Positions 9,591 to 35,582 of a stretch of DNA of 50,331 bases are shown in pieces. The notes under the pieces are model-generated. The model worked only from the letters and a program-made list of their open reading frames with translations. It was not told the origin of the DNA and ran no database searches. Numbering within the stretch: the stretch's first letter is position 1; every line of letters begins with the position of its first letter. Location: NCBI GenBank assembly GCA_021781915.1, contig JAJXVX010000001.1, positions 1 through 50,331 of the forward strand, written 5' to 3'. The position numbers and the translations under genes were made by a program. This DNA comes from a bacterium (GTDB taxonomy: Bacteria > Patescibacteriota > Saccharimonadia > Saccharimonadales > UBA4665).

Positions 9591-10268
9591 ATGTATAAAC
9601 AGCGAAATGCTCATTTGTTGAATCGAAACGGAGAACAAATCTTTTACAATGATATCGGTCGGCCGCTACAAGCCGGTGATAATCTTGATTTATTAAGTAA
9701 AATAAATCAAATTGCCAGTCAAAACTCTTGCCAAATTATTTTTAAAAGTACGCCTGGCGTAGTATATGCCTTAGGTTCGGAAATTAAATCGGCTCGACAA
9801 AAAAATAATCCACTAGTTGAGGGGACGACATCGTCCGATGAAGTAATAGACAAAATCAAAACCTCAACTTTATTTCCCGTCCTACAATTAGATTATGGTC
9901 TAAAAACCAAAATTGACTCTGTAGAATGTAAGACCCTAAAAAAAGATAATCTTAAAGACATTCGATTAAAACTTAACAATATAACAAATTTTAACGAAGA
10001 AGGATCAGTTATATATGAAGAACGGCACGCCGTTCAGTTTGGTCTCGGTCTACTCAGACCCAGACTTAATCAAGATATATCAGATAATTCCAAAGCCCAC
10101 AAACCAACGCCCGTAACACTTCTTTTGGGCGTATTCGAAGCCGATACTACTGCTAATGAAACTCCACTTATCAAGAATTTAAATGAAGTTTTAGAGGGTC
10201 AGACTATCTATCTTGGAAAACTATCTGTTTACAATGCGTTCTCTAACCAATCGAGACAAACTATTTAG
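9591..10268 (+). CDS. Hypothetical protein, 225 aa, no recognisable motif
   Basis: Long ORF with an AAGG SD-like element 6 nt upstream of the ATG. Fills the gap between the divergent rpoB and the convergent clpP. Its stop overlaps the clpP stop by 4 nt. Confidence 0.5.
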
Positions 10269-10864
10269 ACTGCTTTTATTATTTTATCAGCTAACCCGTA
10301 TTTAACAGCTTCGTCGGCCGATAACCATTTGTCTCTTTCCATATCCTGGTGAATGATTTCCGCTTTTTGACCAGTATTTCCGGCCATAATAGATTCTAAC
10401 AGTCTTTTTAGTCGGAGGCTTTCTTGTAAATCAATTTCCTGATCAGTTACCTTGCCTCGTGTTCCTGAACTAGGCTGATGAATCATTACCGTTGAATTGG
10501 GTAATAAAAATCTTTTGCCTTTGGTACCGGAACTAAGCAGAAATGCAGCAGCTGAAGCTTGAACACCGATACCAAATGTTTGAACATCGTTTTTAACAAA
10601 CTTCATCGTGTCGTAAATAGCTAGCGCGTCATAAACACTACCACCCGGACTATTTATATACAGATAAATATCTTTACTCGAATTTTCGGCCTGCAGGAAT
10701 AACAACTGAGCTACAATTAGATTGGCCGTTACTTGATTTACTTCATCACCTAAAAAGATAATTCTCTCTTTTAAAAGGCGAGAGTAGATATCATAGGCCC
10801 TTTCATATCGTCCTTCATTTTCAATAACCGTTGGCACTAACACAGATTGTGGATTGTTTATCAT
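10265..10864 (-). CDS. clpP: ATP-dependent Clp protease proteolytic subunit
   Basis: [39 protein letters not shown]... carries an active-site Ser ([11 protein letters not shown]), MIHQP His and [11 protein letters not shown] prefer the ATG at 10864. The ORF-track GTG start at 10894 lies inside the CIRCE element. Confidence 0.93.
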
Positions 10865-10872
10865 ATAAATAC

Positions 10873-10901
10873 ATAGTAGATTATTGGCACTCACATGTCA
10901 A
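10873..10901 (-). promoter_or_regulatory. Candidate clpP promoter TTGACA-N17-TACTAT, with the -10 box 8 nt from the ATG
   Basis: On the minus strand, TTGACA is at 10901-10896 (inside the CIRCE spacer) and TACTAT at 10878-10873. The ATG is at 10864 and no SD lies in the 8-nt gap. Confidence 0.5.
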
Positions 10902-10910
10902 GAGTGCTAA
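10884..10910. promoter_or_regulatory. CIRCE-type inverted repeat (HrcA operator consensus TTAGCACTC-N9-GAGTGCTAA)
   Basis: The minus strand reads TTAGCACTC TTGACATGT GAGTGCCAA, matching 17 of 18 arm positions. It lies in the 48-nt tig-clpP spacer. Confidence 0.8.
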
Positions 10911-10912
10911 TT

Positions 10913-12199
10913 TTATTTATTTAACAGAGTATCTAGATGATCGAGAGTCTTCTCGATTTGCATTCTATTTTTTATATCAAGTTGGGCATCTTCTGTCTCG
11001 AGCTCTTTAACCATATAATCATCTGACTGATAATAACTCTTAAGCAAATTGAGTCGAGTTTTTAGTTCATCGTCGCTAACCTTAATACCTAGGTCGGAAG
11101 CTAATTTAGATAGCACTAAGCCAGCTTTGATTTGTTTCTCTGCTGCATCGCGATTCTGTTTAGTGTGTTCTTCTTCGCTAACACCTTCATCTTTCAAATG
11201 ATCAGCAAATGTCTGACCTCGAGATTCAAGAGCAGCTTTATCTTGTTGCAAAATTCTTTCTAGCTCAGTGTTAATTAAACTTTCTGGTAATTCAATCTTG
11301 GTCTTAGCGACCAATTCCTCAACTATTTGATTATCAAAAGTTTGTTTATTTCTCGACGCATCTTCCGATTCTATTTGCTGGGCGACTGCTTTTTTTAGGT
11401 CATCGATAGTTTTAAAAGGCCCGAATTTAGCTAGTAATTTCTCGTCTAATTGTGGTTTTACGAGTTTATTGACTGATTTAATCTTGACTTTGAAGACTGT
11501 TTTTTTGTTACGAAGTTTAGCTTGATGGTAGTCGGCTGGAAATGTAATCTTAAACTCTTTACTATCACCTTTTTTTAAACCAACTAGCTGCTCCTCGAAA
11601 CCCGGTATAAAACTGTTGGAGCCCAAAACTAGAGGATAATCATCAGACTTAGCGCCATCAATGAGTTCTTTGGTTTTCTCGTCACTGCCTTCGAAATCAA
11701 AAATAACTTCATCATTTAATTTAGCTGGCTGTTTAGATTCTTGTCTGACAGACTCTTTAGCAATTAAATCATCGACTACCTTATCGATATCTTTTGAAGA
11801 AGCAATCGCTTTCTTTTTTCTAGTTGATAGCTTTTTAAGATCTGGTAATAATATGTCAGCTACTCTTTCCACATCAAAGGTTACTTCAAGAGTCTCGTAT
11901 GGTACAAATTTTTTTATCGAAACATTTGGTTTATCGACTGGCATAAGCTTCAATTCTCGAATAGCCAAAGTATATAAATCGTTTAGCGCCGAGTCCAAAA
12001 ATTCTGTTTGGAGAGTCGATGGATCAACATTCTTTTCAACAATTGATGTTGGTATGTGACCTTTTCTAAATCCAGGCAATGATAAGGTTTTAGCGAATTG
12101 ATTAAGAACCAAGTTTAAATGCTTATTTAAAAGCTCCTTATCTGCGATGGCAGAAAAAGTTACTTTTGTCGGTTTATTGTCGGTGATATTTACTTGCAT
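10913..12199 (-). CDS. tig: Trigger factor (ribosome-associated peptidyl-prolyl isomerase/chaperone)
   Basis: 428 aa with ...LPGFRKGHIPTSIVEK... (the trigger-factor ribosome-binding signature GFRxGxxP) and a central FKBP-like segment. Shows the classical tig-clpP synteny. Confidence 0.9.
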   Translation of the reverse strand: MQVNITDNKPTKVTFSAIADKELLNKHLNLVLNQFAKTLSLPGFRKGHIPTSIVEKNVDPSTLQTEFLDSALNDLYTLAIRELKLMPVDKPNVSIKKFVPYETLEVTFDVERVADILLPDLKKLSTRKKKAIASSKDIDKVVDDLIAKESVRQESKQPAKLNDEVIFDFEGSDEKTKELIDGAKSDDYPLVLGSNSFIPGFEEQLVGLKKGDSKEFKITFPADYHQAKLRNKKTVFKVKIKSVNKLVKPQLDEKLLAKFGPFKTIDDLKKAVAQQIESEDASRNKQTFDNQIVEELVAKTKIELPESLINTELERILQQDKAALESRGQTFADHLKDEGVSEEEHTKQNRDAAEKQIKAGLVLSKLASDLGIKVSDDELKTRLNLLKSYYQSDDYMVKELETEDAQLDIKNRMQIEKTLDHLDTLLNK

Positions 12200-17138: not shown

Positions 17139-17906
17139 TTATTTTTTGCAGAGCAAGAAGAAGATGCTCGGACCAAAATATGTTCCGGACAAAGGTTGTT
17201 GCAAAACTTTTTCTAAAAACAATAAAGCGGACATCGGTAAAATAGATTTAAAAATTCGATGTCGAAGATTAGAAACTGACAATACTCTCTCAACTATCAA
17301 ACCAGCTTGATCGAACTGCCAAATAACCGTTCTTGGGTTATGGTTAACAAAAGGTATCTCGTTTTGATTACGATGCTCTTTTGACCGAATATCGACCGGC
17401 GTGGTTGGTAATTTCTTCCCTTTAACGAATAACCTAATTCGATTTAAGAAATGAGCATAATTAGCTACCTCTATGATAGCGTAGCCATCTTTAGATAAAA
17501 CCCGGGATATTTCGGCTAATTCGACTGAAGGCTCGGGCAAATGATGCATAACTCTAACCATGGCCAGAAGATCTACCGAACCGGTTGGAAATTCAAGATT
17601 ATCGGCCTGCATAATTTTTCTTTCAATTGAAGGAAAATCTTTCAGATACTTTTTGGCAATATCGAGTTGTTGTGATGAAGGCTCGGACAAAACAACCTTA
17701 TCAGAATATTCAGCCAATACTGTTGATAGCCTACCGTAACCACCGCCTAAATCAACCGCTAATTTAAAATGTTTGCCGCTCAGTAATTTGTTAATGGCGA
17801 TAACTTCAGCTTGATTTTCGTATTTACGATTATCCCAGTATCTTAAATAATTATGATTCTCGTCATTATATTGATCCGCTTTTTTCAAGTTTTTTTGATT
17901 TGCCAT
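17139..17906 (-). CDS. Class I SAM-dependent methyltransferase (substrate unknown)
   Basis: 255 aa with motif I VDLGGGYGRLS and a Methyltransf_11-like layout. Confidence 0.8.
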   Translation of the reverse strand: MANQKNLKKADQYNDENHNYLRYWDNRKYENQAEVIAINKLLSGKHFKLAVDLGGGYGRLSTVLAEYSDKVVLSEPSSQQLDIAKKYLKDFPSIERKIMQADNLEFPTGSVDLLAMVRVMHHLPEPSVELAEISRVLSKDGYAIIEVANYAHFLNRIRLFVKGKKLPTTPVDIRSKEHRNQNEIPFVNHNPRTVIWQFDQAGLIVERVLSVSNLRHRIFKSILPMSALLFLEKVLQQPLSGTYFGPSIFFLLCKK

Positions 17907-22571: not shown

Positions 22572-23909
22572 CTAAAAATAATTCAAAATTATCTCGGCCA
22601 AGTTTCTAGCTTGATTATTGCCTGACAAATTCTCCTTAGTCTTGGGTCCTAAACAACCATCAAAACCAAGTTTTTTTGCTTCTTTAAGTCTTTTATCCAC
22701 ATAAGCGACATGCCTTATCTCTCCCGAAAGTCCTACTTCACCAAAAATAACTAAATTTTTCTTAATTTTCGTACCAAGATGAGCTGATATAATAGCTAGA
22801 CAAATTGCTAAGTCAGCAGCCGGCTCGTTTAAGCTAATACCACCCACAACATTGATATAGACATCCTTAGAAGACAGCTTAACTTTTGTCCGTTGTTCGA
22901 TCACGGCAATTAATAGATTCAATCTGTTTATGTCGAAACCACTGGCTGTCCTTTTCGGGTAACCAAAATTTGTCGCGCTGACTAAGGCCTGAACTTCAAC
23001 TAAGACTGCTCTGGAGCCCTCCATTGCAGCCGTTACAACTGATCCGTCAATGTCTAGTCTTTCGTCAAGTAAGATTTCTGAAGGATTACTAATAGTCTTA
23101 AAGCCACTGCTCGTCATCTCGAATATTGCGACTTCATTAGTCGACCCAAACCTATTCTTAAGCGATCTCAGCAATTTAAAACCACCATACCTATCACCCT
23201 CAAGCGAAAGAACGACATCAACCATATGTTCCAGGATTTTTGGACCAGCAATCGAACCGTCTTTAGTGACATGTCCTATTATAATTACTGCTGTGTTAGA
23301 ACTTTTAGCCGATGTAATGATAGCCTGTGCTGAATTGGAAATTTGTCCGACCGAACCCGCCGATGAGCCTACCCAGCTGCAAGAAATAGTCTGAATTGAA
23401 TCGATGATAACTAAATCGTAATCGGCGCTATCTATGCTGGCGGCTATATCATCAGTTGAATTACTATTAGAGATTGATAGGTTTTCACTACTGCCTTTGA
23501 TTCGAAGCTTTCTTTGATCTACTTGATAAGTTGTTTCTTCTGAGGATACATAGAGTACTTTTTTGTTTTTGGCTATATTAAGGGCCATCTGGAGTATTAA
23601 GGTACTCTTTCCTATGCCTGGCTGACCAGTTAAAAGTATAACGCTACCCGATAGCACTCCACCGCCTAAAACTTCATCGATATCTTCAAAGCCAACTGGA
23701 TAACGTTGATTACTATCCATTCCGAGAGGGCTGTCTAGTTTAAGGATATTTAACGGCCGACCAGTTTTAAGTTTTGATGAACTAATTGAAATTGGAGCTT
23801 GTTCTTCTAAGGTATTCCACTCCATACACCTTGGACAACGACCACTCCACTGATTGAAGGTCGCCAAACAGCTCGAACATACAAAACTGACTGCCTCTTT
23901 TTTTGCCAT
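22572..23909 (-). CDS. radA: DNA repair protein RadA/Sms
   Basis: N-terminal zinc ribbon CSSC...CPRC, Walker A GQPGIGKST, the KNRFG motif (LKNRFGS) and a Lon-like C-terminal domain. Confidence 0.95.
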   Translation of the reverse strand: MAKKEAVSFVCSSCLATFNQWSGRCPRCMEWNTLEEQAPISISSSKLKTGRPLNILKLDSPLGMDSNQRYPVGFEDIDEVLGGGVLSGSVILLTGQPGIGKSTLILQMALNIAKNKKVLYVSSEETTYQVDQRKLRIKGSSENLSISNSNSTDDIAASIDSADYDLVIIDSIQTISCSWVGSSAGSVGQISNSAQAIITSAKSSNTAVIIIGHVTKDGSIAGPKILEHMVDVVLSLEGDRYGGFKLLRSLKNRFGSTNEVAIFEMTSSGFKTISNPSEILLDERLDIDGSVVTAAMEGSRAVLVEVQALVSATNFGYPKRTASGFDINRLNLLIAVIEQRTKVKLSSKDVYINVVGGISLNEPAADLAICLAIISAHLGTKIKKNLVIFGEVGLSGEIRHVAYVDKRLKEAKKLGFDGCLGPKTKENLSGNNQARNLAEIILNYF

Positions 23910-23935: not shown

Positions 23936-24913
23936 CTACTTGGTTGGTATAGTCGGTGGGCTTATCTCAGTCTCTAGAGAAACTAGGGCAATCGATATTT
24001 GATTTCGTTGACTGACTAGTTGGTTATAATTGGTTATTTCAGCAGAAATATTTGTAACTAGGTTATTGTACTGATTAACCTTGCTGTTATAGGAATTAAT
24101 TAGATCGTTAATAGCCGGGTCACTCGGGTTAGAATTAATATAATTTAGTTGATTATTCAATGATAAGTATAGTGCTTTAGCCTGATTTTGTTGATTAGTT
24201 ATAGTGGCATTCATAGATAAGAGTGTACTGTCGTAAGAGGATAGCTGAGTTTTCTTATTAAGAAATACCTGCTGATAGGCTTGCTCATAAGCAACAACTT
24301 TACTTCTATTGTAAAAGTATTTTGTATAAAAAGATTCCAGTTGCGGCGTTAGTGTGGCGCACTCGGTCGGAAAGGTTGAATTCATTTCGTCATAAACTGA
24401 ACCAGGCTCAGTTTTCATATAAATTGCCACCTCATCTTTAATCCTTTGATTAGTCAAATCGTGTTTATAAAAATTTAATAGCAATCCATCGAGGTAATCT
24501 TTTTGAGATGATGATAGTCTGGAATAAACACCGTGGAGCATTTCATGGGCAGCCGTTACCTGCATAATGCCATTTAAGGTAGGATCAGCTACACTTAAAA
24601 TATAAATACCATTTTCATTCGGATAATAACATCCCAGGATTATCTCCTCAGAGGGATGATAGTTGGGACAAAGTTTAGAAAAATGTATCTTATCCAAAAA
24701 GGTTGGATGATTGATATAAAATATCTGTCGGGAAATTGGCGTCATACTATCTTCAGTCGCCAGCTGATTAACTAATGCTGGAACTTTATAGTTATATAGA
24801 ATGGCCTCATCATAGAGGCTGAAACGATTGTAATAAACTAAATATCCAACCAAAAACAGAACTATTAAAACAATAAACGGTTTTAAGCCCTTTTTTCGAC
24901 TCATCCTAACCAT
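23936..24913 (-). CDS. Membrane-anchored hypothetical protein with an HExxH motif and a Q/N-rich coiled-coil-like tail
   Basis: 325 aa with an N-terminal TM helix (FIVLIVLFLVGYLVYY). The only catalytic-looking signature is AAHEMLHGVY, and the C-terminal roughly 110 aa are N/Q/S-rich. An alternative start is at 24904. Confidence 0.5.
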   Translation of the reverse strand: MVRMSRKKGLKPFIVLIVLFLVGYLVYYNRFSLYDEAILYNYKVPALVNQLATEDSMTPISRQIFYINHPTFLDKIHFSKLCPNYHPSEEIILGCYYPNENGIYILSVADPTLNGIMQVTAAHEMLHGVYSRLSSSQKDYLDGLLLNFYKHDLTNQRIKDEVAIYMKTEPGSVYDEMNSTFPTECATLTPQLESFYTKYFYNRSKVVAYEQAYQQVFLNKKTQLSSYDSTLLSMNATITNQQNQAKALYLSLNNQLNYINSNPSDPAINDLINSYNSKVNQYNNLVTNISAEITNYNQLVSQRNQISIALVSLETEISPPTIPTK

Positions 24914-24927
24914 TCTAAGATAAAAAT

Positions 24928-27429
24928 CTATTTAGATACAGTAGATTCGTTTAGTATCTTGTAGTCTAGCTGACCAGCTTTAGCAGAGACTGAAACTATA
25001 TCACCTTTGGACAATTTATTAGCAAGCAGATTGGTCGATATATAGTCTTCAATAGTGTCTTGGATTAATCTTCTAAGCGGTCTAACGCCGTTTTTAGCAT
25101 CGTAACCCTCTTTAAGAAGGTAGTTCTTACCGCTTTCACTGAGCAAAATACCAATTCCAAATTTGACCATCCTGCTTTTCAGTTCATTTATTTGCAGGTC
25201 GATAATCTTTTTAACATCAATCTTGGTTAAGGCCCTAAAAACAACTACTTTATCAATCCGATTCAACATCTCAGGTCGAAGCAGACGGTTTAATTCTTCC
25301 ATTACATTCAGCTTATTCGCTTGATGAATTTGATCCAAATCTTCTAGCTGTGATTTGTCTGATATGCTAAAACCATAGGCAGCTTCTTTCTGTAGCTTAT
25401 CAGCGCCCAGGTTCGAGGTCATGATTATTATAGTATTGGTAAAATCAATCTTCTTGCCTTTAGCATCACTTAAGTAGCCGTCCTCCAAAATTTGAAGCAT
25501 CATATTGAAAACATCCGGATGGGCTTTTTCAATTTCATCAAATAGAACAAGACTGTAGGGTTGACGTCGTATTTTATCAGTCAACTGACCGCCCTGCTCA
25601 TATCCAACATAACCAGCTGGCGCACCGACTAGTCTCGAGACCGTGTGATGCTCACCGAATTCACTCATATCAATTTTAATAAGGGCTGACTCTGAACCAT
25701 AAAATTCTCTAGCCAGAACTCTGGCTAATTCTGTTTTTCCAACACCCGTCGGACCGAGGAAAACAAATGAACCAATTGGTCTTTTCTCGCTAGAGACGCC
25801 TGAACGGTTGCGACGAATGGCTGAAGCGACTACTTTAGTTGCTTCATCTTGTCCTATGACTTGTTTGCCTAGTATTTTTTCAAGTTGCAATAAATATGAG
25901 GCTTCTGATGCGATTACTTTTTTTAGTGGAATTCCGGTCATTCGTGAAACAACATCAGACAAGTCTTCTACACTCAATGTTAATCTTTGTTTATTCTTTT
26001 GAGCTTTATCCAACTTGTTCAACTCGGAATTAATCTGTGATGCTTTAGTTTTATACTGAGCTGCTTTTTCATAATCTTCAGAATCGACAGCGTCTTCTAT
26101 GCGAGCATTTAGTAATTTAAGTTCTTTTTGCAGATTTCTAATTTCTGGGCTGGTTTTGACTTTTAAGACCTTTAAGTGAGCAGCAGCTTCGTCGATTAAG
26201 TCTATTGCCTTATCTGGCATAAAACGATCATGAATATAACGTGATGCTAATCGAACAGCATCTTCTAAGACTTCATCGGAAATACTAACACCGTGATACG
26301 ATTCATAGTGTTTCTTTAACCCCTTTAATATGGCCAGCGTTTCCGACGGTGATGTTTCCTGAACTTGAATAGGCTGAAGTCTTCTCTCTAAGGCAGCGTC
26401 TTTTTCTATATATTTGGTATACTCAGCGGTGGTCGTAGCTCCTATTAGATGAATTGTGCCTCTGGCAAGAGCTGGTTTTAATATATTACCTGCATCCATC
26501 GATCCTTCGGCTGAACCGGCGCCAACTATCAGATGTAGCTCATCGATAAAAAGAATAGTCTTTTTGTCTTTCTCTAGCTCTTGCATGACTTTCTTTAGTC
26601 TCTCTTCAAATTCACCACGATATTTAGTTCCGGCAACCATTGCGGCCAAATCGAGTACAACAATTTTTTTATCAAGTAAACTATCGGGGACGTCCTCAGC
26701 GACAATTCTTTGAGCTAGACCCTCGACGATGGCCGTTTTTCCAACTCCTGGCTCACCGATTAAAACAGGGTTATTCTTTGTTCGTCGATTAAGTATGGTA
26801 ATTAAACGGCTTATTTGATCGTCTCGCCCAACAACCGGATCTAACTTATGGCTTTTGGCCATTACAGTCAGATCAGTGCCAAAGGATTCTAAGGCTGATT
26901 TTTGAAAATTCTTGGTCGCTTTTTTAGAACCAATACGATAATCTCTGGTATCTTCTTCATATTGTTGACGGTTTAAAAGATTAGTCAGTTCATTTAGTAC
27001 TGAGCTAACATCAGCATTAACATTCTTTAGCAGTTCGGTTGCTTTAGAATTCTTCTGATTTAGAATTGAAAAGATTATATGTTCTGTACCGCAAAATTCT
27101 TGGTTAAACTCCTGAGAAACATCATAGGCCATTTTTAAAGTTAATTTGGCGGTTTCGGAAAAACCTTTCATCGGCTCATTTAATGCTATGCTTTTAGGTT
27201 GAACCTTTATAGCTAAACGAGTTTTTTCAAACGTCACACCAGCTTTATCAAAAATTTTAGCACCAATTGACTCTTTTTGAGCTAAAACTCCTAATAATAG
27301 ATGTTCAGTGCCGACATATGAGCTGCCCAAACTTCGAGCAATCAATTCGGCCTGACGCAATGAAGATATCGCATTGTTAGTTAAGTGATTTAAAAATTCT
27401 CTAAAATCAGGATCGTTATTTGGAAACAT
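24928..27429 (-). CDS. clpC: AAA+ ATPase ClpC (Clp protease ATP-binding subunit)
   Basis: 833 aa with two Clp_N repeats and two Walker A sites ([18 protein letters not shown]). Has a short middle/UVR-like region ([12 protein letters not shown]) and a ClpP-docking YGF loop (AAYGFSIS). Confidence 0.9.
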
Positions 27430-27490
27430 ATTATCTTTCTTATTATAGCTTTATCTAACAGCAATTTATTGAAAAATTGCTTATAAGTAA

Positions 27491-27519
27491 ATAATAAGAA
27501 ATTAGCACTCACATGTCAA
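27491..27519 (-). promoter_or_regulatory. Candidate clpC promoter TTGACA-N17-TATTAT
   Basis: On the minus strand, TTGACA is at 27519-27514 (inside the CIRCE spacer) and TATTAT at 27496-27491. This leaves a leader of about 55 nt to the ATG at 27429. Confidence 0.5.
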
Positions 27520-27528
27520 GAGTGCCAA
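27502..27528. promoter_or_regulatory. CIRCE-type inverted repeat (second copy)
   Basis: The plus strand reads TTAGCACTC ACATGTCAA GAGTGCCAA, matching 17 of 18 arm positions. Its 21-nt core GCACTCTTGACATGTGAGTGC is identical to the clpP copy. It begins 6 nt after the nusA stop. Confidence 0.8.
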
Positions 27529-27533
27529 TTTAT

Positions 27534-28721
27534 TTATTCGCCGTGTTCTTCGATGGCTTCGAGTAATTCGTTTTCAAGGTCTGTTTTTTTCTTTAGCTTA
27601 CCCGATTTAACTGTTTCAACTTTCATATTAGTGGCTTCTACGGGCTGATTGATTTCAACCTCAGCTACCTTCTCGGGTTGACTAACAGATGCCTTAATAT
27701 CTATTTCAAAGCCAGTTAATTTTGAGGCCAAACGAACATTTTGACCACTCTTACCTATAGCTATACTCTGTTGATCCTCATCTACTAAAACAATTGCTCT
27801 AGCTGGTTCACCTTCGAAAATAACATCGTTAACCCGGGTAGGACTAAGTGCATTAGTGATAAACTTCTTTGGATCTTCATCAAAAATAATAATATCAACT
27901 TTTTCTTGATCACCAATTTCTGACATAACTGCATTAACGCGAGTACCGTGACCACCTACGAAAGTACCTACCGGATCAACTCCCTTAATAGCTGAAGAAA
28001 CAGCCAGCTTAGTCCTGACTCCGGCCTCACGAGCGATTGCTTCTATCTTTACTGCGCCGCTTTCCATCTCTGGAACTTCGTTTCTGAACAAAAGCTCAAC
28101 AAACTCAGCACAACCCCTGGACAGCAGTAGTTGCGGACCGCGAAAACCCTTTTCAACATCCTTTAAATAAACTTTAAGCCGTTGACCAGGGTAATAATGC
28201 TCATTTGGAATTTGTTCGGCTTTGGGCATAATGCCTTGAATTCGACCTAAATCAACTCTAACTAAATTATTTTCCACACGAGCAACATTAGCATTAATGA
28301 TAGTGCCAATTTTATCTTCAAATTCTTCTAAGATGATATCTCTCTCAGTCTCGCGAAGCTTTTGAACCATTACTTGTTTCGCCGTTTGCGCGGCTACCCG
28401 ACCAAAAGTTTCAACTTTTTCATGAACTTCGATTTCATCACCAATCTTTACGTCTTTTTTCATGACTGAAGCGTCTTTGAGTGAAATCTCAAAAGTAGAG
28501 TGTTCAACCTTATCGACGACTGATTTAGTAGCATATATGTCCACATCACCGGTATTCAAATTAATATTGGCTCTGATTTCTTGTTCTCGATCACCAAAGT
28601 CTCTTTTGTAAGCGGCGATCAATGCCTGTTCAACAATTGATTTAACAACATCTTCCGGTAAATTCTTTTCTTCTGCGATTGTTCTAATAGCGAGAGCTAA
28701 CTGCTTAACATCTAAATCCAT
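27534..28721 (-). CDS. nusA: Transcription termination/antitermination factor NusA
   Basis: 395 aa with an N-terminal RNAP-binding domain, an S1 domain and two KH domains (...GRVAAQTAKQV..., ...AIGKSGQNVRLASKLTG...). SD AGGAG lies 6 nt upstream. Confidence 0.95.
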   Translation of the reverse strand: MDLDVKQLALAIRTIAEEKNLPEDVVKSIVEQALIAAYKRDFGDREQEIRANINLNTGDVDIYATKSVVDKVEHSTFEISLKDASVMKKDVKIGDEIEVHEKVETFGRVAAQTAKQVMVQKLRETERDIILEEFEDKIGTIINANVARVENNLVRVDLGRIQGIMPKAEQIPNEHYYPGQRLKVYLKDVEKGFRGPQLLLSRGCAEFVELLFRNEVPEMESGAVKIEAIAREAGVRTKLAVSSAIKGVDPVGTFVGGHGTRVNAVMSEIGDQEKVDIIIFDEDPKKFITNALSPTRVNDVIFEGEPARAIVLVDEDQQSIAIGKSGQNVRLASKLTGFEIDIKASVSQPEKVAEVEINQPVEATNMKVETVKSGKLKKKTDLENELLEAIEEHGE

Positions 28722-28854: not shown

Positions 28855-31443
28855 ATGCCTAAACTAAGACGCCTGTCCTCTTACTATAAACCGAACCGCT
28901 ATGATTTAAAATTAAACATCGACAAAACAGCCATGGCATTTAACGGTGAGGTCGTTGTAGATGGTTTTAAGATAGGCAAGCCTTCTAAAAGGATTACATT
29001 TCATCAAAAAGATCTAAAAATCTTATCAGCCGAAGTTACGCATATAGATAAAGGAGTTAAGACTGCCCTGGAAATTTTTCGGATAAATCATCAAAGAAGT
29101 TTTGATGAAGTTAGATTACATTTCAATAAATTAATCTATCCCGGTCATTACGTAGTAAAGCTAGCTTTTGAAGGTGGCATAACTAAACATCTAGACGGTA
29201 TTTATCCTTCCAGGTTTGACGATAATAATGGCAAAGAAAAAATTATCATAGCTACTCAATTTGAGAGCCATCATGCCCGACAGGCCTTCCCTTGTATCGA
29301 CGAACCTAATGCCAAGGCAATATTTAAACTGTCGCTGTCTTCAGATAAATCGGATGTAATTATATCCAACACTAAAGAGGAATCAACATTGATTAAAAAT
29401 AGCTTAAAAACAGTTGTTTTTAAAGAAACTCCCATGATGAGCACCTATCTACTTGCCTTTGCCTGTGGCGAAATAGATTATCAGGAAAGAATAACTGAAT
29501 CTGGTGTGACTATCAGGTCTTACGCGACGCCGGATAAAAAACATATGACGGCGTTCAGTCTAGATATAGCCGAAAAATCTTTGGCTTTTTTTGAAGATTA
29601 TTTTGGGGTTGAATATCCTTTAGACAAATTGGATTTACTTGCTCTACCTGATTTTAGTTCAGGAGCGATGGAGAATTGGGGTTTAATTACATTCAGAGAG
29701 ACAGCTCTTTTAATTAATGATGGATCCGACAACATTGACGTCAAACAACAAATTACACTGGTAATCTGTCACGAAATATCCCACCAATGGTTTGGTAATT
29801 TAGTAACAATGGAATGGTGGGATGATTTATGGCTCAACGAAAGTTTTGCTAACTTAATGGAATATCGAGCGACTGATAAAATTTTTCCTGATTGGCAAAT
29901 TTGGCAGCATTTCGTCTCCCATGAAGTTATTGGCGCTAAAAAACGTGATGGACTGCTTGATGTCCAGCCAATTCATGCTAAAGTTAGTCACCCAGACGAA
30001 ATATCAACTTTATTTGACCCTTCAATAGTCTATTCAAAAGGTGGTTCCGTTCTTTATATGTTAATAAACTATATCGGCGAAGAGTCATTTAGATTAAGTT
30101 TATCTAATTATTTTAAGAAATACGCCTATAAAAATACTAAGGCAGATGATTTATGGCAAGAAATGTCTAAAGTAACTAATCGTAATATCTCTGCTTTTAT
30201 GAATAATTGGTTGTACTCACCAGGGCTTCCACTATTAAATATCGACTACATGCCAGGTCGAAAAACTATTAAAGTATCACAACAAAGATTCTTGCTTGAT
30301 CCATCTCATCAGTCTGATTCAGACAATAATTTGTGGCAAATACCTTACTCAAGTAATCAAAAACTAAAAACTGAGTTATTGACCAAAAAAGCAACTCAAC
30401 TGTTATTGGTTAATCAACCGACCGATCCTTTAATTTTTAATCAAAATGGGCTTTCTTATATGTTGGTCAACTATCTTAATAAAGGTCACCTAGCAAACAT
30501 ATGTGCCAATGTAGACGAACTTACAACCATAGATAAGTTTCTTTTATTAGATAATTATTATTTACTGGAACGTTCGACCAAGATTAGCCTCATCGAAGCG
30601 CTAGATTTAATTTCTTACTTTAAAAGCGAATCGGATGATATTATTTGGTCGAGTATTTCATTACTACTATCTGAGGTAAAAAGATTATTAGAATCATCTT
30701 CGTCTGATAGAAAAAAAATAAATAGTCTCATATCCGACTTTGTTGATGAAAAACTAAAGATGATTCCGTTCAAGCAGTCACCAAATGAATCATCTAAACA
30801 AATCAGATACAGGTCAATCTTATTCTCACTAGGAGCCATGTCGAATAATGACTACATTATAGAAAAATTCAAAGAATTATTCAGAAACTTTTCTAAACCA
30901 ACTGATATTAATCCTAATATCAGAAATATTGCATACTACATCGCGGTAAAAGAACAGGTAAATTTTGATAAACTATTTAAAATTTATCAAAAACTTTCCG
31001 ACCATGAAGAAAAAGAAGAGATTATTTTTGCACTGGCTAGTACAAAAAAAAGTGATAATATAAGTCAACTTCTTGATTTAATCAAAGACAAGGACACTCG
31101 GTCTCAAGACATACTAACAATTTACGGGTCTATTTTTCGAAACTCATATGCCCGAGATCAAGCTTGGAAATGGTTTAAAGCAAATTTTGATTTTCTAAAA
31201 GAAACTTTTAAAACAGATAAGAGCTACGGATATTTTGTTAGAATTATTGCCAACTACTTTGATAAACCGACAGAACTAAAGGAATTCAAAAATTTCTTTG
31301 AACCAAAACTTGAAGACATTTCTTTAAAACGAGAAATTAGCCTCGGTATTATGGAAATTAATAATCGTAAAAACTGGCGAGATAAAAATGAAGACAGCGT
31401 GAAACAATGGCTTCACAAAACTAACGATTTGATAAAACTTTAA
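28855..31443 (+). CDS. pepN: M1-family aminopeptidase N
   Basis: 862 aa with the GAMEN exopeptidase motif (SGAMENWG) and HEISHQWFGNLVTMEWWDDLWLNESFA (HExxH-x18-E). An ERAP1-like C-terminal domain follows. Confidence 0.92.
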   Translation: MPKLRRLSSYYKPNRYDLKLNIDKTAMAFNGEVVVDGFKIGKPSKRITFHQKDLKILSAEVTHIDKGVKTALEIFRINHQRSFDEVRLHFNKLIYPGHYVVKLAFEGGITKHLDGIYPSRFDDNNGKEKIIIATQFESHHARQAFPCIDEPNAKAIFKLSLSSDKSDVIISNTKEESTLIKNSLKTVVFKETPMMSTYLLAFACGEIDYQERITESGVTIRSYATPDKKHMTAFSLDIAEKSLAFFEDYFGVEYPLDKLDLLALPDFSSGAMENWGLITFRETALLINDGSDNIDVKQQITLVICHEISHQWFGNLVTMEWWDDLWLNESFANLMEYRATDKIFPDWQIWQHFVSHEVIGAKKRDGLLDVQPIHAKVSHPDEISTLFDPSIVYSKGGSVLYMLINYIGEESFRLSLSNYFKKYAYKNTKADDLWQEMSKVTNRNISAFMNNWLYSPGLPLLNIDYMPGRKTIKVSQQRFLLDPSHQSDSDNNLWQIPYSSNQKLKTELLTKKATQLLLVNQPTDPLIFNQNGLSYMLVNYLNKGHLANICANVDELTTIDKFLLLDNYYLLERSTKISLIEALDLISYFKSESDDIIWSSISLLLSEVKRLLESSSSDRKKINSLISDFVDEKLKMIPFKQSPNESSKQIRYRSILFSLGAMSNNDYIIEKFKELFRNFSKPTDINPNIRNIAYYIAVKEQVNFDKLFKIYQKLSDHEEKEEIIFALASTKKSDNISQLLDLIKDKDTRSQDILTIYGSIFRNSYARDQAWKWFKANFDFLKETFKTDKSYGYFVRIIANYFDKPTELKEFKNFFEPKLEDISLKREISLGIMEINNRKNWRDKNEDSVKQWLHKTNDLIKL

Positions 31444-32569: not shown

Positions 32570-34183
32570 TTAAAAATCTAGAACTCGAGCAATTTCAGAT
32601 ATGGTAGTCATTCCAGCCAATACTTTGGCCATCCCATCGCCGTACATATTGTTAAGACCACTCCGATCAGCTGCTTCATTAATAAGATCGGTCGAAATTA
32701 TTCTAGAATCATGGCTCTTAGAAATTACCTGTTTTATCTCTTCTGTCATTAAGTATTGTTCCCTGATAGCTATCTGCCCATTGTAACCGAAAGGATTTTG
32801 ATCGTTAACAATTGGCCTAAAGAGCATAGTCGAATCATTGATATCTGGTTTTAAAATGTTATTTGGCATCTTTTCAAGAAGTCTCATCAACATATCTCTT
32901 TCTGCCTGATCTGGTTGATAGCTCTCTTTATAAGTATCGTCTAGCTTTCGGACCAGTCTTTGGGCCATTATCAGGCGAATTGCAGAAGTGAACAAACTGT
33001 TTTCTTCAATCACTGAACCTAGCCTGGTTAAGGCGGCAGCTGCTGAGCCTGCGTGAAAAGTAGCCAATACAAGATGTCCGGTTAAAGCGGCCTGAAGTGC
33101 TGTCTTGGCAGTATCTTCATCTCTAATCTCACCAATCATAATGACATCCGGGTCAATTCGAAGGACTGCCTTTAAGCGATCGATGAAATTACTATCATTA
33201 TGCTCGCCTTTCGAATCAATCGACATCTGAGTAACGCCTTCAAACTGGTATTCGACAGGGTCCTCAACTGTAATAATTTTTCTCTGATCATTATTAAGCT
33301 GATTTAACATTGAATAAAGAGTCGTAGTTTTACCTGAGCCAGTCGGACCTACCACCATAACAAGACCGGTTGGCTTAGCTATAATGTCATTAACGACAGC
33401 TCTTTCGCTATCAGATAATCCCAATCTATCTAGGTTATACATCGATTGGTACATATTGAACAATCTCATAACAATATCCATACCGTTAACTGTTTGAACT
33501 GTCTCAACACGTAGATTAACATCAACGTTAGTATGATCGGCCATTTCCACTTTTTGAGATATATGACCCTGTTGAGGTTCGGTTGATGAAGTAGAAATAT
33601 TAGAAGCCGAAGCAACTGCTGAGACTAATATTCTATATTTTTCAAAAGATAGCTTGGCTACAATGTGAAGTACGCCATCAATTCTAAATCTTATTCTAAC
33701 GTCATTACGTTGTGTCTCGATATGAATGTCGGAAGAGTTGAGCTTATGAGCCTGAGAGACAAGGTACGCCAACATATCATCGGCGTTAACCTGATTTAAA
33801 ATATCAGAAATTTGACTAACAGTATCGGTTTGGTTCTCAGAAATATTTATATCTTGGTAAACGATTTGTTTGGGTGGATCAAATAACTTCATGTAATCTC
33901 TAAATCCACTGTCAGAAATTAATGCAAAGTTAACTCGTTGATCTAGAAAATGTTCTCTTATATATTTGAGACTGTTTTGAGATGTGACTGTAGTAATACC
34001 GAATAGGACATTGCTTTGATCGGCTACTAAAGGCACAATCTTAAACTGATACATTTCATCATTGGTTAAGACATTTTTGATTAAATTCTTGTCTTGAATA
34101 TTGGTATCATAATAATCTAGGCCCAATACTTGAGCCCGTCTAAGCGTAGATTGCTCTTCGTCTTGTCTGGCGTCTTGACTCAT
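32570..34183 (-). CDS. GspE/PilB-family secretion or type IV pilus assembly ATPase
   Basis: 537 aa with an N-terminal T2SSE_N-like domain, Walker A GPTGSGKTTT, Walker B DVIMIGEIRD and the His box GHLVLATFHA. The protein contains no cysteine, so the usual tetracysteine zinc site is absent. Confidence 0.85.
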   Translation of the reverse strand: MSQDARQDEEQSTLRRAQVLGLDYYDTNIQDKNLIKNVLTNDEMYQFKIVPLVADQSNVLFGITTVTSQNSLKYIREHFLDQRVNFALISDSGFRDYMKLFDPPKQIVYQDINISENQTDTVSQISDILNQVNADDMLAYLVSQAHKLNSSDIHIETQRNDVRIRFRIDGVLHIVAKLSFEKYRILVSAVASASNISTSSTEPQQGHISQKVEMADHTNVDVNLRVETVQTVNGMDIVMRLFNMYQSMYNLDRLGLSDSERAVVNDIIAKPTGLVMVVGPTGSGKTTTLYSMLNQLNNDQRKIITVEDPVEYQFEGVTQMSIDSKGEHNDSNFIDRLKAVLRIDPDVIMIGEIRDEDTAKTALQAALTGHLVLATFHAGSAAAALTRLGSVIEENSLFTSAIRLIMAQRLVRKLDDTYKESYQPDQAERDMLMRLLEKMPNNILKPDINDSTMLFRPIVNDQNPFGYNGQIAIREQYLMTEEIKQVISKSHDSRIISTDLINEAADRSGLNNMYGDGMAKVLAGMTTISEIARVLDF

Positions 34184-34766: not shown

Positions 34767-35582
34767 ATGACCCTGCAAAAACAAAAAAAACAGGTGATTT
34801 CAAAAGATAGTTTTCACTACAAACATTTCAAGAAAAAAAAGTCACACCACTATCTAAAACCGTACTACCCCTACTTACCTATGTTAGCCTTGATAATAGT
34901 TGGTTCTACTATTCTAATTAATATCAATAAACCAACTAATTTTTCAATCAGTTCTCTGATTAATTCAACTAATCAGGCTAGACTGAGCAATAATCTAAAC
35001 TCAGTCAATCTCAATAAAAATCTGTCCGTCCTCGCTCAAGACAGTGCTAGCAAGATTGCCGACAGGTCAACTACCAGCACAAGTGTCGGTACCGTTGCGG
35101 AAGGCTTTAATAACTCAAGTCAAATAATTAGCGCCTGGCTAAGTAATAACTCTTCAAGAGTTCAGTTGCTAAGTGGCAATTTACAGAATATTGGTTTTGG
35201 TATTGCTAAAACCTCTAACCAATCAACTAAGTACGTCGTTGTAGCAATGTATCAGTCAACTTCTGGAGAAGTCAGCCATATCACCTTTTATGTGCCACCT
35301 CGCCAAACTGGCAATAAGACCAATTCCAATACCACTCTATCGAATCAAAAATTAATATCACGAATTATACTAATAACTAACAATACCTTTTATCAAGAAC
35401 TACTGATCGTTGGAGTATTTATCTTGGCAACACTATTTTTCTTAAGACACCTCATCTTTTTTAAAAAAGTCTTGGTTCAGGGAGAAAAAATACTGCTAAA
35501 CAACATCTGGCTAGATATTGTGGTCATAGTTGCGATATTTATTGGAGTTTACTTTATTCAAACCGTCGGATTTATTAGCTAA
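34767..35582 (+). CDS. Membrane protein with a degenerate CAP/SCP (YkwD-like) extracytoplasmic domain
   Basis: 271 aa with an N-terminal TM, a central region resembling CAP domains and C-terminal TM helices. The central region reads ...LAQDSASKIA..., ...AEGFNNSSQIISAWLSNNSSRVQLLSGNLQNIGFGIA...YVVVAMY, but the usual His residues are replaced. Weak call. Confidence 0.4.
   Translation: MTLQKQKKQVISKDSFHYKHFKKKKSHHYLKPYYPYLPMLALIIVGSTILININKPTNFSISSLINSTNQARLSNNLNSVNLNKNLSVLAQDSASKIADRSTTSTSVGTVAEGFNNSSQIISAWLSNNSSRVQLLSGNLQNIGFGIAKTSNQSTKYVVVAMYQSTSGEVSHITFYVPPRQTGNKTNSNTTLSNQKLISRIILITNNTFYQELLIVGVFILATLFFLRHLIFFKKVLVQGEKILLNNIWLDIVVIVAIFIGVYFIQTVGFIS

Follow-up and report, generated by a model that had tools for sequence, protein, structure and literature searches.

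The 27-bp palindrome between tig and clpP in a Saccharibacteria (TM7, Patescibacteria) metagenome-assembled genome is most probably a working CIRCE operator for the HrcA repressor of this lineage, fused with a sigma-70-type clpP promoter; we put the probability of this reading at roughly 85%. A second element with the same spacer lies in the promoter of a clpC-like gene within the same window, by which we mean the whole stretch of DNA analysed (50,331 nucleotides, GC 37.4%), and the same combination of operator and -35 box recurs in relatives ahead of dnaK, hrcA, hsp20, clpC and clpP. Every close match that our searches returned belongs to a Saccharibacteria metagenome-assembled genome.

On the minus strand, the palindrome at clpP agrees with the CIRCE consensus TTAGCACTC-N9-GAGTGCTAA at 17 of 18 arm positions, the single mismatch falling within an otherwise regular 9-bp inverted repeat with a 9-nt spacer. 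The elements of the locus are as follows.

10884-10910, minus strand: CIRCE-type inverted repeat, putative HrcA operator of clpP, TTAGCACTC-TTGACATGT-GAGTGCCAA
10896-10901, minus strand: -35 hexamer TTGACA, the first six bases of the clpP CIRCE spacer
10873-10878, minus strand: -10 hexamer TACTAT, 17 nt past the -35 hexamer and 8 nt ahead of the clpP ATG
10265-10864, minus strand: clpP, 199 aa (NCBIfam PRK00277, E 2.8e-85, above the curated cutoff)
10913-12199, minus strand: tig (trigger factor), upstream neighbour of clpP (TIGR00115, E 1.6e-96)

These features bear out what an earlier note had read at this site: a CIRCE match at 17 of 18 arm positions; a TTGACA in the spacer, TACTAT 17 nt further on and the clpP ATG 8 nt past that, with every coordinate correct; and the ATG at 10864 as the start of ClpP, which indeed opens the 199-aa PRK00277 protein and is also the start called in assembly GCA_027459425.1. 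The element sits inside the 48-nt tig-clpP spacer, after the tig stop codon, and TTGACA-17-TACTAT is the top promoter returned for the clpP region by a promoter scan (10/12). Judged by its letters and position, the palindrome is a predicted HrcA-type operator fused to the clpP -35 box. A terminator scan returned no terminator-like site between tig and clpP, so that read-through transcription from tig is possible; tig has its own -10-like hexamer 8 nt ahead of its ATG, and no CIRCE was found upstream of it. On the other side of clpP, and convergent with it, an open reading frame of 225 aa (9591-10268, plus strand) has no Pfam or NCBIfam match.

Exactly two CIRCE matches with at most three mismatches occur in the 50-kb window, and the second, absent from the earlier note, lies 16.6 kb from clpP in the promoter of a gene for a ClpC-like ATPase.

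27502-27528, minus strand: second CIRCE, putative HrcA operator of clpC, TTGGCACTC-TTGACATGT-GAGTGCTAA
27514-27519, minus strand: -35 hexamer TTGACA within the second CIRCE (promoter scan)
27491-27496, minus strand: -10 hexamer TATTAT, 17 nt past the -35 hexamer (promoter with 11/12 matches)
24928-27429, minus strand: clpC-like AAA+ ATPase, 833 aa, with two Clp_N repeats, two AAA modules and a short UVR-type middle motif
27534-28721: nusA, upstream neighbour of the clpC-like gene, with the second CIRCE between the two

This site too matches the consensus at 17 of 18 arm positions. Against the ClpB and ClpA models the ATPase stays below the curated cutoffs, and we call it ClpC-like because of its domain architecture and a YGF tripeptide seen by eye. 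The two sites have an identical spacer, TTGACATGT, which is asymmetric and oriented in both cases toward the downstream clp gene, and at both genes the operator overlaps the core promoter at its -35 box. Since the only two CIRCE elements in 50 kb both fall in clp promoters, they mark both parts of ClpCP. Two further features were observed in the clpC 5' UTR, a perfect 8-bp inverted repeat (AGCAATTT-N6-AAATTGCT, 27460-27481, minus strand) and a -10-like TATAAT at 27442-27447, 12 nt ahead of the clpC ATG, with no good -35 box; a second weak promoter and an RNA element are both possibilities for them. Between clpC and radA lies an open reading frame of 325 aa with a hydrophobic N-terminus (23936-24913, minus strand), again with no Pfam or NCBIfam match.

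Palindromes of this kind could in principle arise by chance or be copies of a small repeat element without a regulatory role, and the two copies do share, besides their spacer, a AATAAATAAA stretch just upstream. Shuffled windows, however, yield an expectation of only 0.02 matches, and none of 100 shuffles gave two; the window holds two copies and no more, both in clp promoters; and species with Tig proteins only 34-41% identical to that of the window retain the element at the orthologous site. We regard chance or repeat copying as scarcely credible.

That conservation was assessed in a motif-blind sample, obtained by scanning metagenomes with the Tig of the window (21 loci, 25-54% identity). 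Three of these loci (L131, L132 and L133), with ClpP at least 55% and Tig 34-41% identical to those of the window, carry a CIRCE with one or two mismatches 20-24 nt ahead of clpP. With the genome scan described below, which contributed L031, L051, L064 and L103, a CIRCE with at most two mismatches was found upstream of clpP in seven further loci, all from different contigs and assemblies. In the operator-bearing loci tig and clpP lie between 48 nt and 1.6 kb apart; the flanks cannot be aligned, yet the arms are kept. In ten more distant tig-clpP loci (ClpP at most 59% identical) the best CIRCE match has at least seven mismatches, so the alignment of orthologous spacers that the earlier note had proposed as a check finds the element retained upstream of clpP in relatives and absent from those ten distant loci. 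The locus with the closest Tig (L130, 54% identity) contains neither a CIRCE nor clpP within the 121 nt past tig, at which point its sequence ends. In L131 and L132 the -35 hexamer is shifted, TTGACG being made up of the last five bases of the spacer (5-9) plus the right arm's first base, and on this sequence evidence the predicted overlap of CIRCE and -35 box is kept even where its exact arrangement has changed. In L031, clpC and clpP each have a CIRCE site of their own. In a gut-type Saccharibacterium (L075, 2289-5376) clpP (194 aa) lies directly behind clpC (833 aa) under a single CIRCE promoter, an operon that would achieve the same co-regulation by another route.

The same comparisons bear on whether the inverted repeat, rather than being an operator in DNA, acts mainly in RNA at the 3' end of tig or nusA, where it would form a terminator or a stabilising hairpin. 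At clpP the hairpin folds weakly (-9.2 kcal/mol, z -1.4) and no U tract follows it, and a terminator reading of this site was rejected on those grounds and for want of a terminator-like site. Its clpC-side counterpart (27480-27545, minus strand) fits a role in RNA better, being stable (-16.7 kcal/mol, z -4.0) and followed by UUUCUUAUUAUUU, a partial U tract; it has a 9-nt loop and lies just past the nusA stop codon, and both sites start a few bases past the stop codon of the upstream gene. Even so, the terminator scan was negative at both sites, and relatives keep the position of the element relative to the downstream gene and the -10 box although tig may be 0.2-1.6 kb away; nor would a role as a hairpin conserve the exact CIRCE arms or the TTGACA in the loop. 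A mainly RNA-level function is, on balance, very unlikely, and the DNA operator remains our preferred reading, with the qualification that the clpC-side hairpin might also help to end nusA transcripts as a secondary role.

If the palindrome is an operator fused to a promoter, the same fusion might recur elsewhere in the lineage, and a scan of one genome per species with the pattern RGCACTC-TTGACANNN-GAGTGCY, that is, a CIRCE with TTGACA in its spacer, identified at least 119 loci. Among the loci listed, 82 carry the label of Saccharibacteria or of a genus within it, and the remainder are mostly other Patescibacteria, with some Chloroflexi, a few hrcA promoters of the Streptococcus mitis group and scattered others. 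Each match was classed by its first downstream gene, with the following counts among the matches listed.

DnaK: 45
HrcA: 32
Hsp20: 15
ClpC-like: 10 (nine labelled Saccharibacteria and one Fervidobacterium)
ClpP: 4
ClpB: 2
GroES: 1, in a Dehalococcoides locus (L043)
Other or no gene: 12

As predicted from these neighbours, the gene set is the composition of a heat-shock regulon, the gene of its repressor included. That dnaK, a member of the classical regulon, carries the same operator in relatives (45 loci among the matches listed) answers another check put forward in the earlier note. The sampled loci (L005-L123, among the matches listed) contain no groES or groEL of Saccharibacteria, whether directly after the module or at another position, and a tblastn search of these loci with an E. 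coli GroEL sequence matched only the Dehalococcoides locus L043. The module was also observed at clpC-like genes or clpB outside Saccharibacteria, in Fervidobacterium (L008), at two Patescibacteria clpB genes (L010 and L117) and in Spechtbacteria (L048); HrcA control of Clp ATPases may, by this measure, be wider than the textbook picture.

Whether the TTGACA of the spacer serves as a promoter element could be judged from the hexamer TAnnnT, which lies outside the search pattern. It stands 16-18 nt past TTGACA in 107 of 123 module hits (87%), the figure at six control offsets being 4-21 of 123 (among the matches listed), and this enrichment at the proper spacing indicates that the TTGACA in the CIRCE spacer is a real -35 box. 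The predicted fused operator and -35 promoter is, by its recurrence, a standard cassette of the lineage. Some promoters have in addition a second CIRCE (at most three mismatches) directly past the -10 box, with the following frequencies among the matches listed.

dnaK promoters: 35/45
hrcA promoters: 8/32
hsp20 promoters: 1/15
clpC promoters: 0/11
clpP promoters: 0/5

The dnaK loci of this kind (for example L014, L012, L021, L063 and L104) thus have one operator on the -35 box and one past the -10 box. Two operators at dnaK and one at clpC, clpP and hsp20 suggest a graded repression, as far as promoter sequences can indicate it.

The repressor itself was sought around the window by reading its flanks on contig DAIDII010000002.1 (84,897 bp) of GCA_027459425.1, so that about 75 kb were covered (record positions 1-66,120). 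No hrcA was found in the window, in the 10 kb beyond its start or in the 6.7 kb beyond its other end; the flanks hold a ribosomal protein operon beyond the start, and pentose-phosphate and glycolysis genes beyond the other end. The hrcA loci of relatives share no genes with the window and its flanks except a paralogous GTPase. This GTPase, 33-41% identical to the EF-G of the window, shares an 8-kb locus with hrcA in eight cases (L007, L027, L040, L055, L062, L065, L071 and L089) and is probably LepA; in Firmicutes, lepA has a similar neighbourhood with hrcA-grpE-dnaK.

In the relatives, HrcA-like genes were present in 58 of the fetched loci, and the module stands directly upstream of hrcA in 32 hits (both among the matches listed), an arrangement that for this lineage corresponds to autoregulation. 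One locus has the gene order hrcA, grpE, CIRCE, dnaK (L074). A homologue search returned at least 8000 HrcA proteins with E < 1e-20, the best 120 of which are all at least 81% identical to the query. The HrcA of the lineage is short, 217-256 aa (about 234) vs 344-360 aa in the Streptococcus copies, and lacks about 100 central residues relative to streptococcal HrcA. Examples are as follows.

L038, 1616-2317: short HrcA
L074, 3875-4579: short HrcA
30 other loci, in Saccharibacteria and other Patescibacteria: short HrcA

Its winged-helix region aligns with that of Thermotoga maritima HrcA (PDB 1STZ, residues 16-101) with E 3.8e-18, and Pfam matches were obtained to PF01628 (profile positions 108-215 of 215 only) and PF03444, while an AlphaFold2 model of the short protein has a mean pLDDT of 53 and is too poor to interpret. 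Because about 100 residues are missing, DNA binding, dimerisation and stress sensing by this protein are assumed by us. As read from genome sequences, the repressor is established for the lineage and not for this genome.

Both the negative search for hrcA in the window and its read flanks, and the atypically short protein of the lineage, leave some room for another repressor of the lineage that reads the CIRCE-like palindrome at the clp genes with no involvement of HrcA. The palindrome has arms that equal the CIRCE consensus, however, and the identical module precedes hrcA (32 loci) and dnaK (45 loci, both among the matches listed), the short HrcA and its T. maritima counterpart have a well-conserved winged-helix in common, and nothing points to a second regulator. 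We consider such a substitute highly improbable.

Other known regulators of clp genes were looked for in the same spacers. A search of the whole window for CtsR boxes, as the tandem heptad direct repeat RGTCAAANANRGTCAAA with at most three mismatches, gave 14 matches vs 9.2 expected, none of them in the clpP or clpC promoter regions, and inspection of both spacers by eye revealed nothing similar to a ClgR- or sigma-32-like promoter. With no CtsR box at either clp promoter, HrcA would be the only recognisable control of these genes.

The architecture of the clpP promoter also bears on translation. No Shine-Dalgarno sequence was found between the -10 box and the ATG, and as the -10 box ends 8 nt before the start codon, the clpP mRNA is expected to be leaderless or nearly so. 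If it is leaderless, any tig read-through transcript would be translated poorly at clpP, making the gene's own promoter the effective route to its expression. A simple motif test detected no Shine-Dalgarno sequence at 21 of 30 genes in the window. In several of these, as in clpP, a TAnnnT hexamer was observed 6-9 nt before the ATG, for example in tig (10913-12199) and those at 32570-34183, 34767-35582, 17139-17906 and 28855-31443, and 11 nt before the ATG of radA (22572-23909). These sequence features suggest widespread leaderless transcripts in this genome.

Taking the operator and promoter as read above, we infer the following course of regulation. An HrcA dimer on both arms would cover the -35 box, which occupies bases 1-6 of the spacer and thus the same DNA as the operator, and would keep RNA polymerase off the promoter. 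Under heat or proteotoxic stress HrcA would lose its DNA binding; RNA polymerase could then use TTGACA-17-TACTAT on the freed promoter and would begin transcription 0-2 nt ahead of the ATG, and the resulting clpP mRNA would be leaderless or nearly so. The identical module would govern the gene of the clpC-like ATPase, placing both parts of ClpCP under co-regulation with the dnaK, hrcA and hsp20 of the lineage. Chaperones and protein degradation would then probably share one stress switch. The earlier note had proposed that the protease arm of proteostasis belongs to the HrcA regulon, and at the level of the lineage this proposal gains support from the twin site at clpC, the shared module and its conservation.

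Passages of PMC3192767, PMC3842655 and PMC6305308 describe class I heat shock in Bacillus subtilis as the action of HrcA and CIRCE at the dnaK and groE operons, citing Zuber and Schumann 1994; repression by HrcA is described as preventing the recruitment of RNA polymerase (PMC6305308). The operator sequence is the same here, TTAGCACTC-N9-GAGTGCTAA, and a relative (L074) shows the hrcA-grpE-dnaK arrangement with hrcA preceded by its own operator. In B. subtilis CIRCE lies between the transcription and translation starts, and this classical position is that of the second operator at the dnaK promoters of Saccharibacteria (35 of 45 among the matches listed), whereas the operator described here has the -35 box at its centre and provides that box from its spacer. 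The targets also differ, being clpP and clpC in the window, as does the repressor, about 234 aa in this lineage vs about 340 in B. subtilis.

Control of proteolysis by HrcA has precedents, so the surprise is smaller than the earlier note assumed, and its premise that clp genes stand outside HrcA control in characterised bacteria was overstated. In Mollicutes the HrcA regulon comprises the dnaK operon together with clpB and lon, HrcA is among the very few conserved regulators, and some promoters have two CIRCE copies (PMC5138195); expression of clpL in Lactobacillus gasseri is likewise regulated by HrcA (PMC3192767). Mollicutes resemble the present case as genome-reduced bacteria whose HrcA regulon includes an AAA+ protein and a protease, but their protease is Lon and not ClpP, and no clpC or clpP targets are reported there. 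In streptococci the HrcA and CtsR regulons overlap in part, according to passages of PMC6305308. The CtsR regulon of Firmicutes (clpP, clpC, clpE and others) resembles the one predicted here in placing clpC and clpP under one heat-responsive repressor, although its operator is a tandem heptad repeat (PMC6305308) and ours a palindrome. In the window, nusA and not ctsR, mcsA or mcsB lies upstream of clpC, and radA follows within about 1 kb past clpC. The Firmicutes cluster ctsR-mcsA-mcsB-clpC-radA likewise runs from clpC to radA. A further parallel is Streptococcus salivarius, in which clpP is reportedly under both CtsR and HrcA (Chastanet and Msadek 2003); if so, it is a direct precedent for control of clpP by CIRCE and HrcA, but in a Firmicute that also has CtsR, whereas the present sites belong to Patescibacteria and show no CtsR box at the clp promoters. 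CIRCE and HrcA at clp genes are, in sum, already known, and what is new is their predicted presence in Saccharibacteria, apparently without CtsR.

To our knowledge almost nothing is known of how Saccharibacteria and other ultrasmall Patescibacteria regulate their genes. A literature search found nothing linking HrcA or CIRCE to Saccharibacteria, Patescibacteria, the Candidate Phyla Radiation, TM7x or Nanosynbacter, and heat shock, chaperones, Clp and repressors all go unmentioned in a 2024 perspective on Patescibacteria. A bolder reading, which we hold only tentatively and think doubtful as a whole, is that a mini-HrcA of about 234 aa could be the single master regulator of proteostasis in Saccharibacteria, perhaps in wider Patescibacteria, governing chaperones (dnaK and hsp20) and the whole of ClpCP through the fused cassette, often with leaderless mRNAs and with two operators at dnaK and one at the clp genes, and sensing stress by a means that may differ from titration by GroE.

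The locus and its relatives define a concrete and testable regulon of dnaK, hrcA, hsp20, clpC and clpP, among the first such regulons available to biologists of Patescibacteria, although it would hold no great surprise for a heat-shock specialist. They also provide a promoter consensus of the sigma-70 type for the lineage, TTGACA-17/18-TAnnnT, and many promoters of this form appear to drive leaderless transcripts. Further interest lies in the phylum-wide fusion of operator and -35 box in one cassette, the pattern of one or two operators, the leaderless architecture and the short HrcA. The predicted arrangement brings in a further phylum whose Clp protease would be under HrcA with no recognisable CtsR, and extends a trend known from Mollicutes and certain streptococci. 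The module could also find use as a compact, stress-inducible promoter and operator cassette in the genetic systems that are now appearing for Saccharibacteria.
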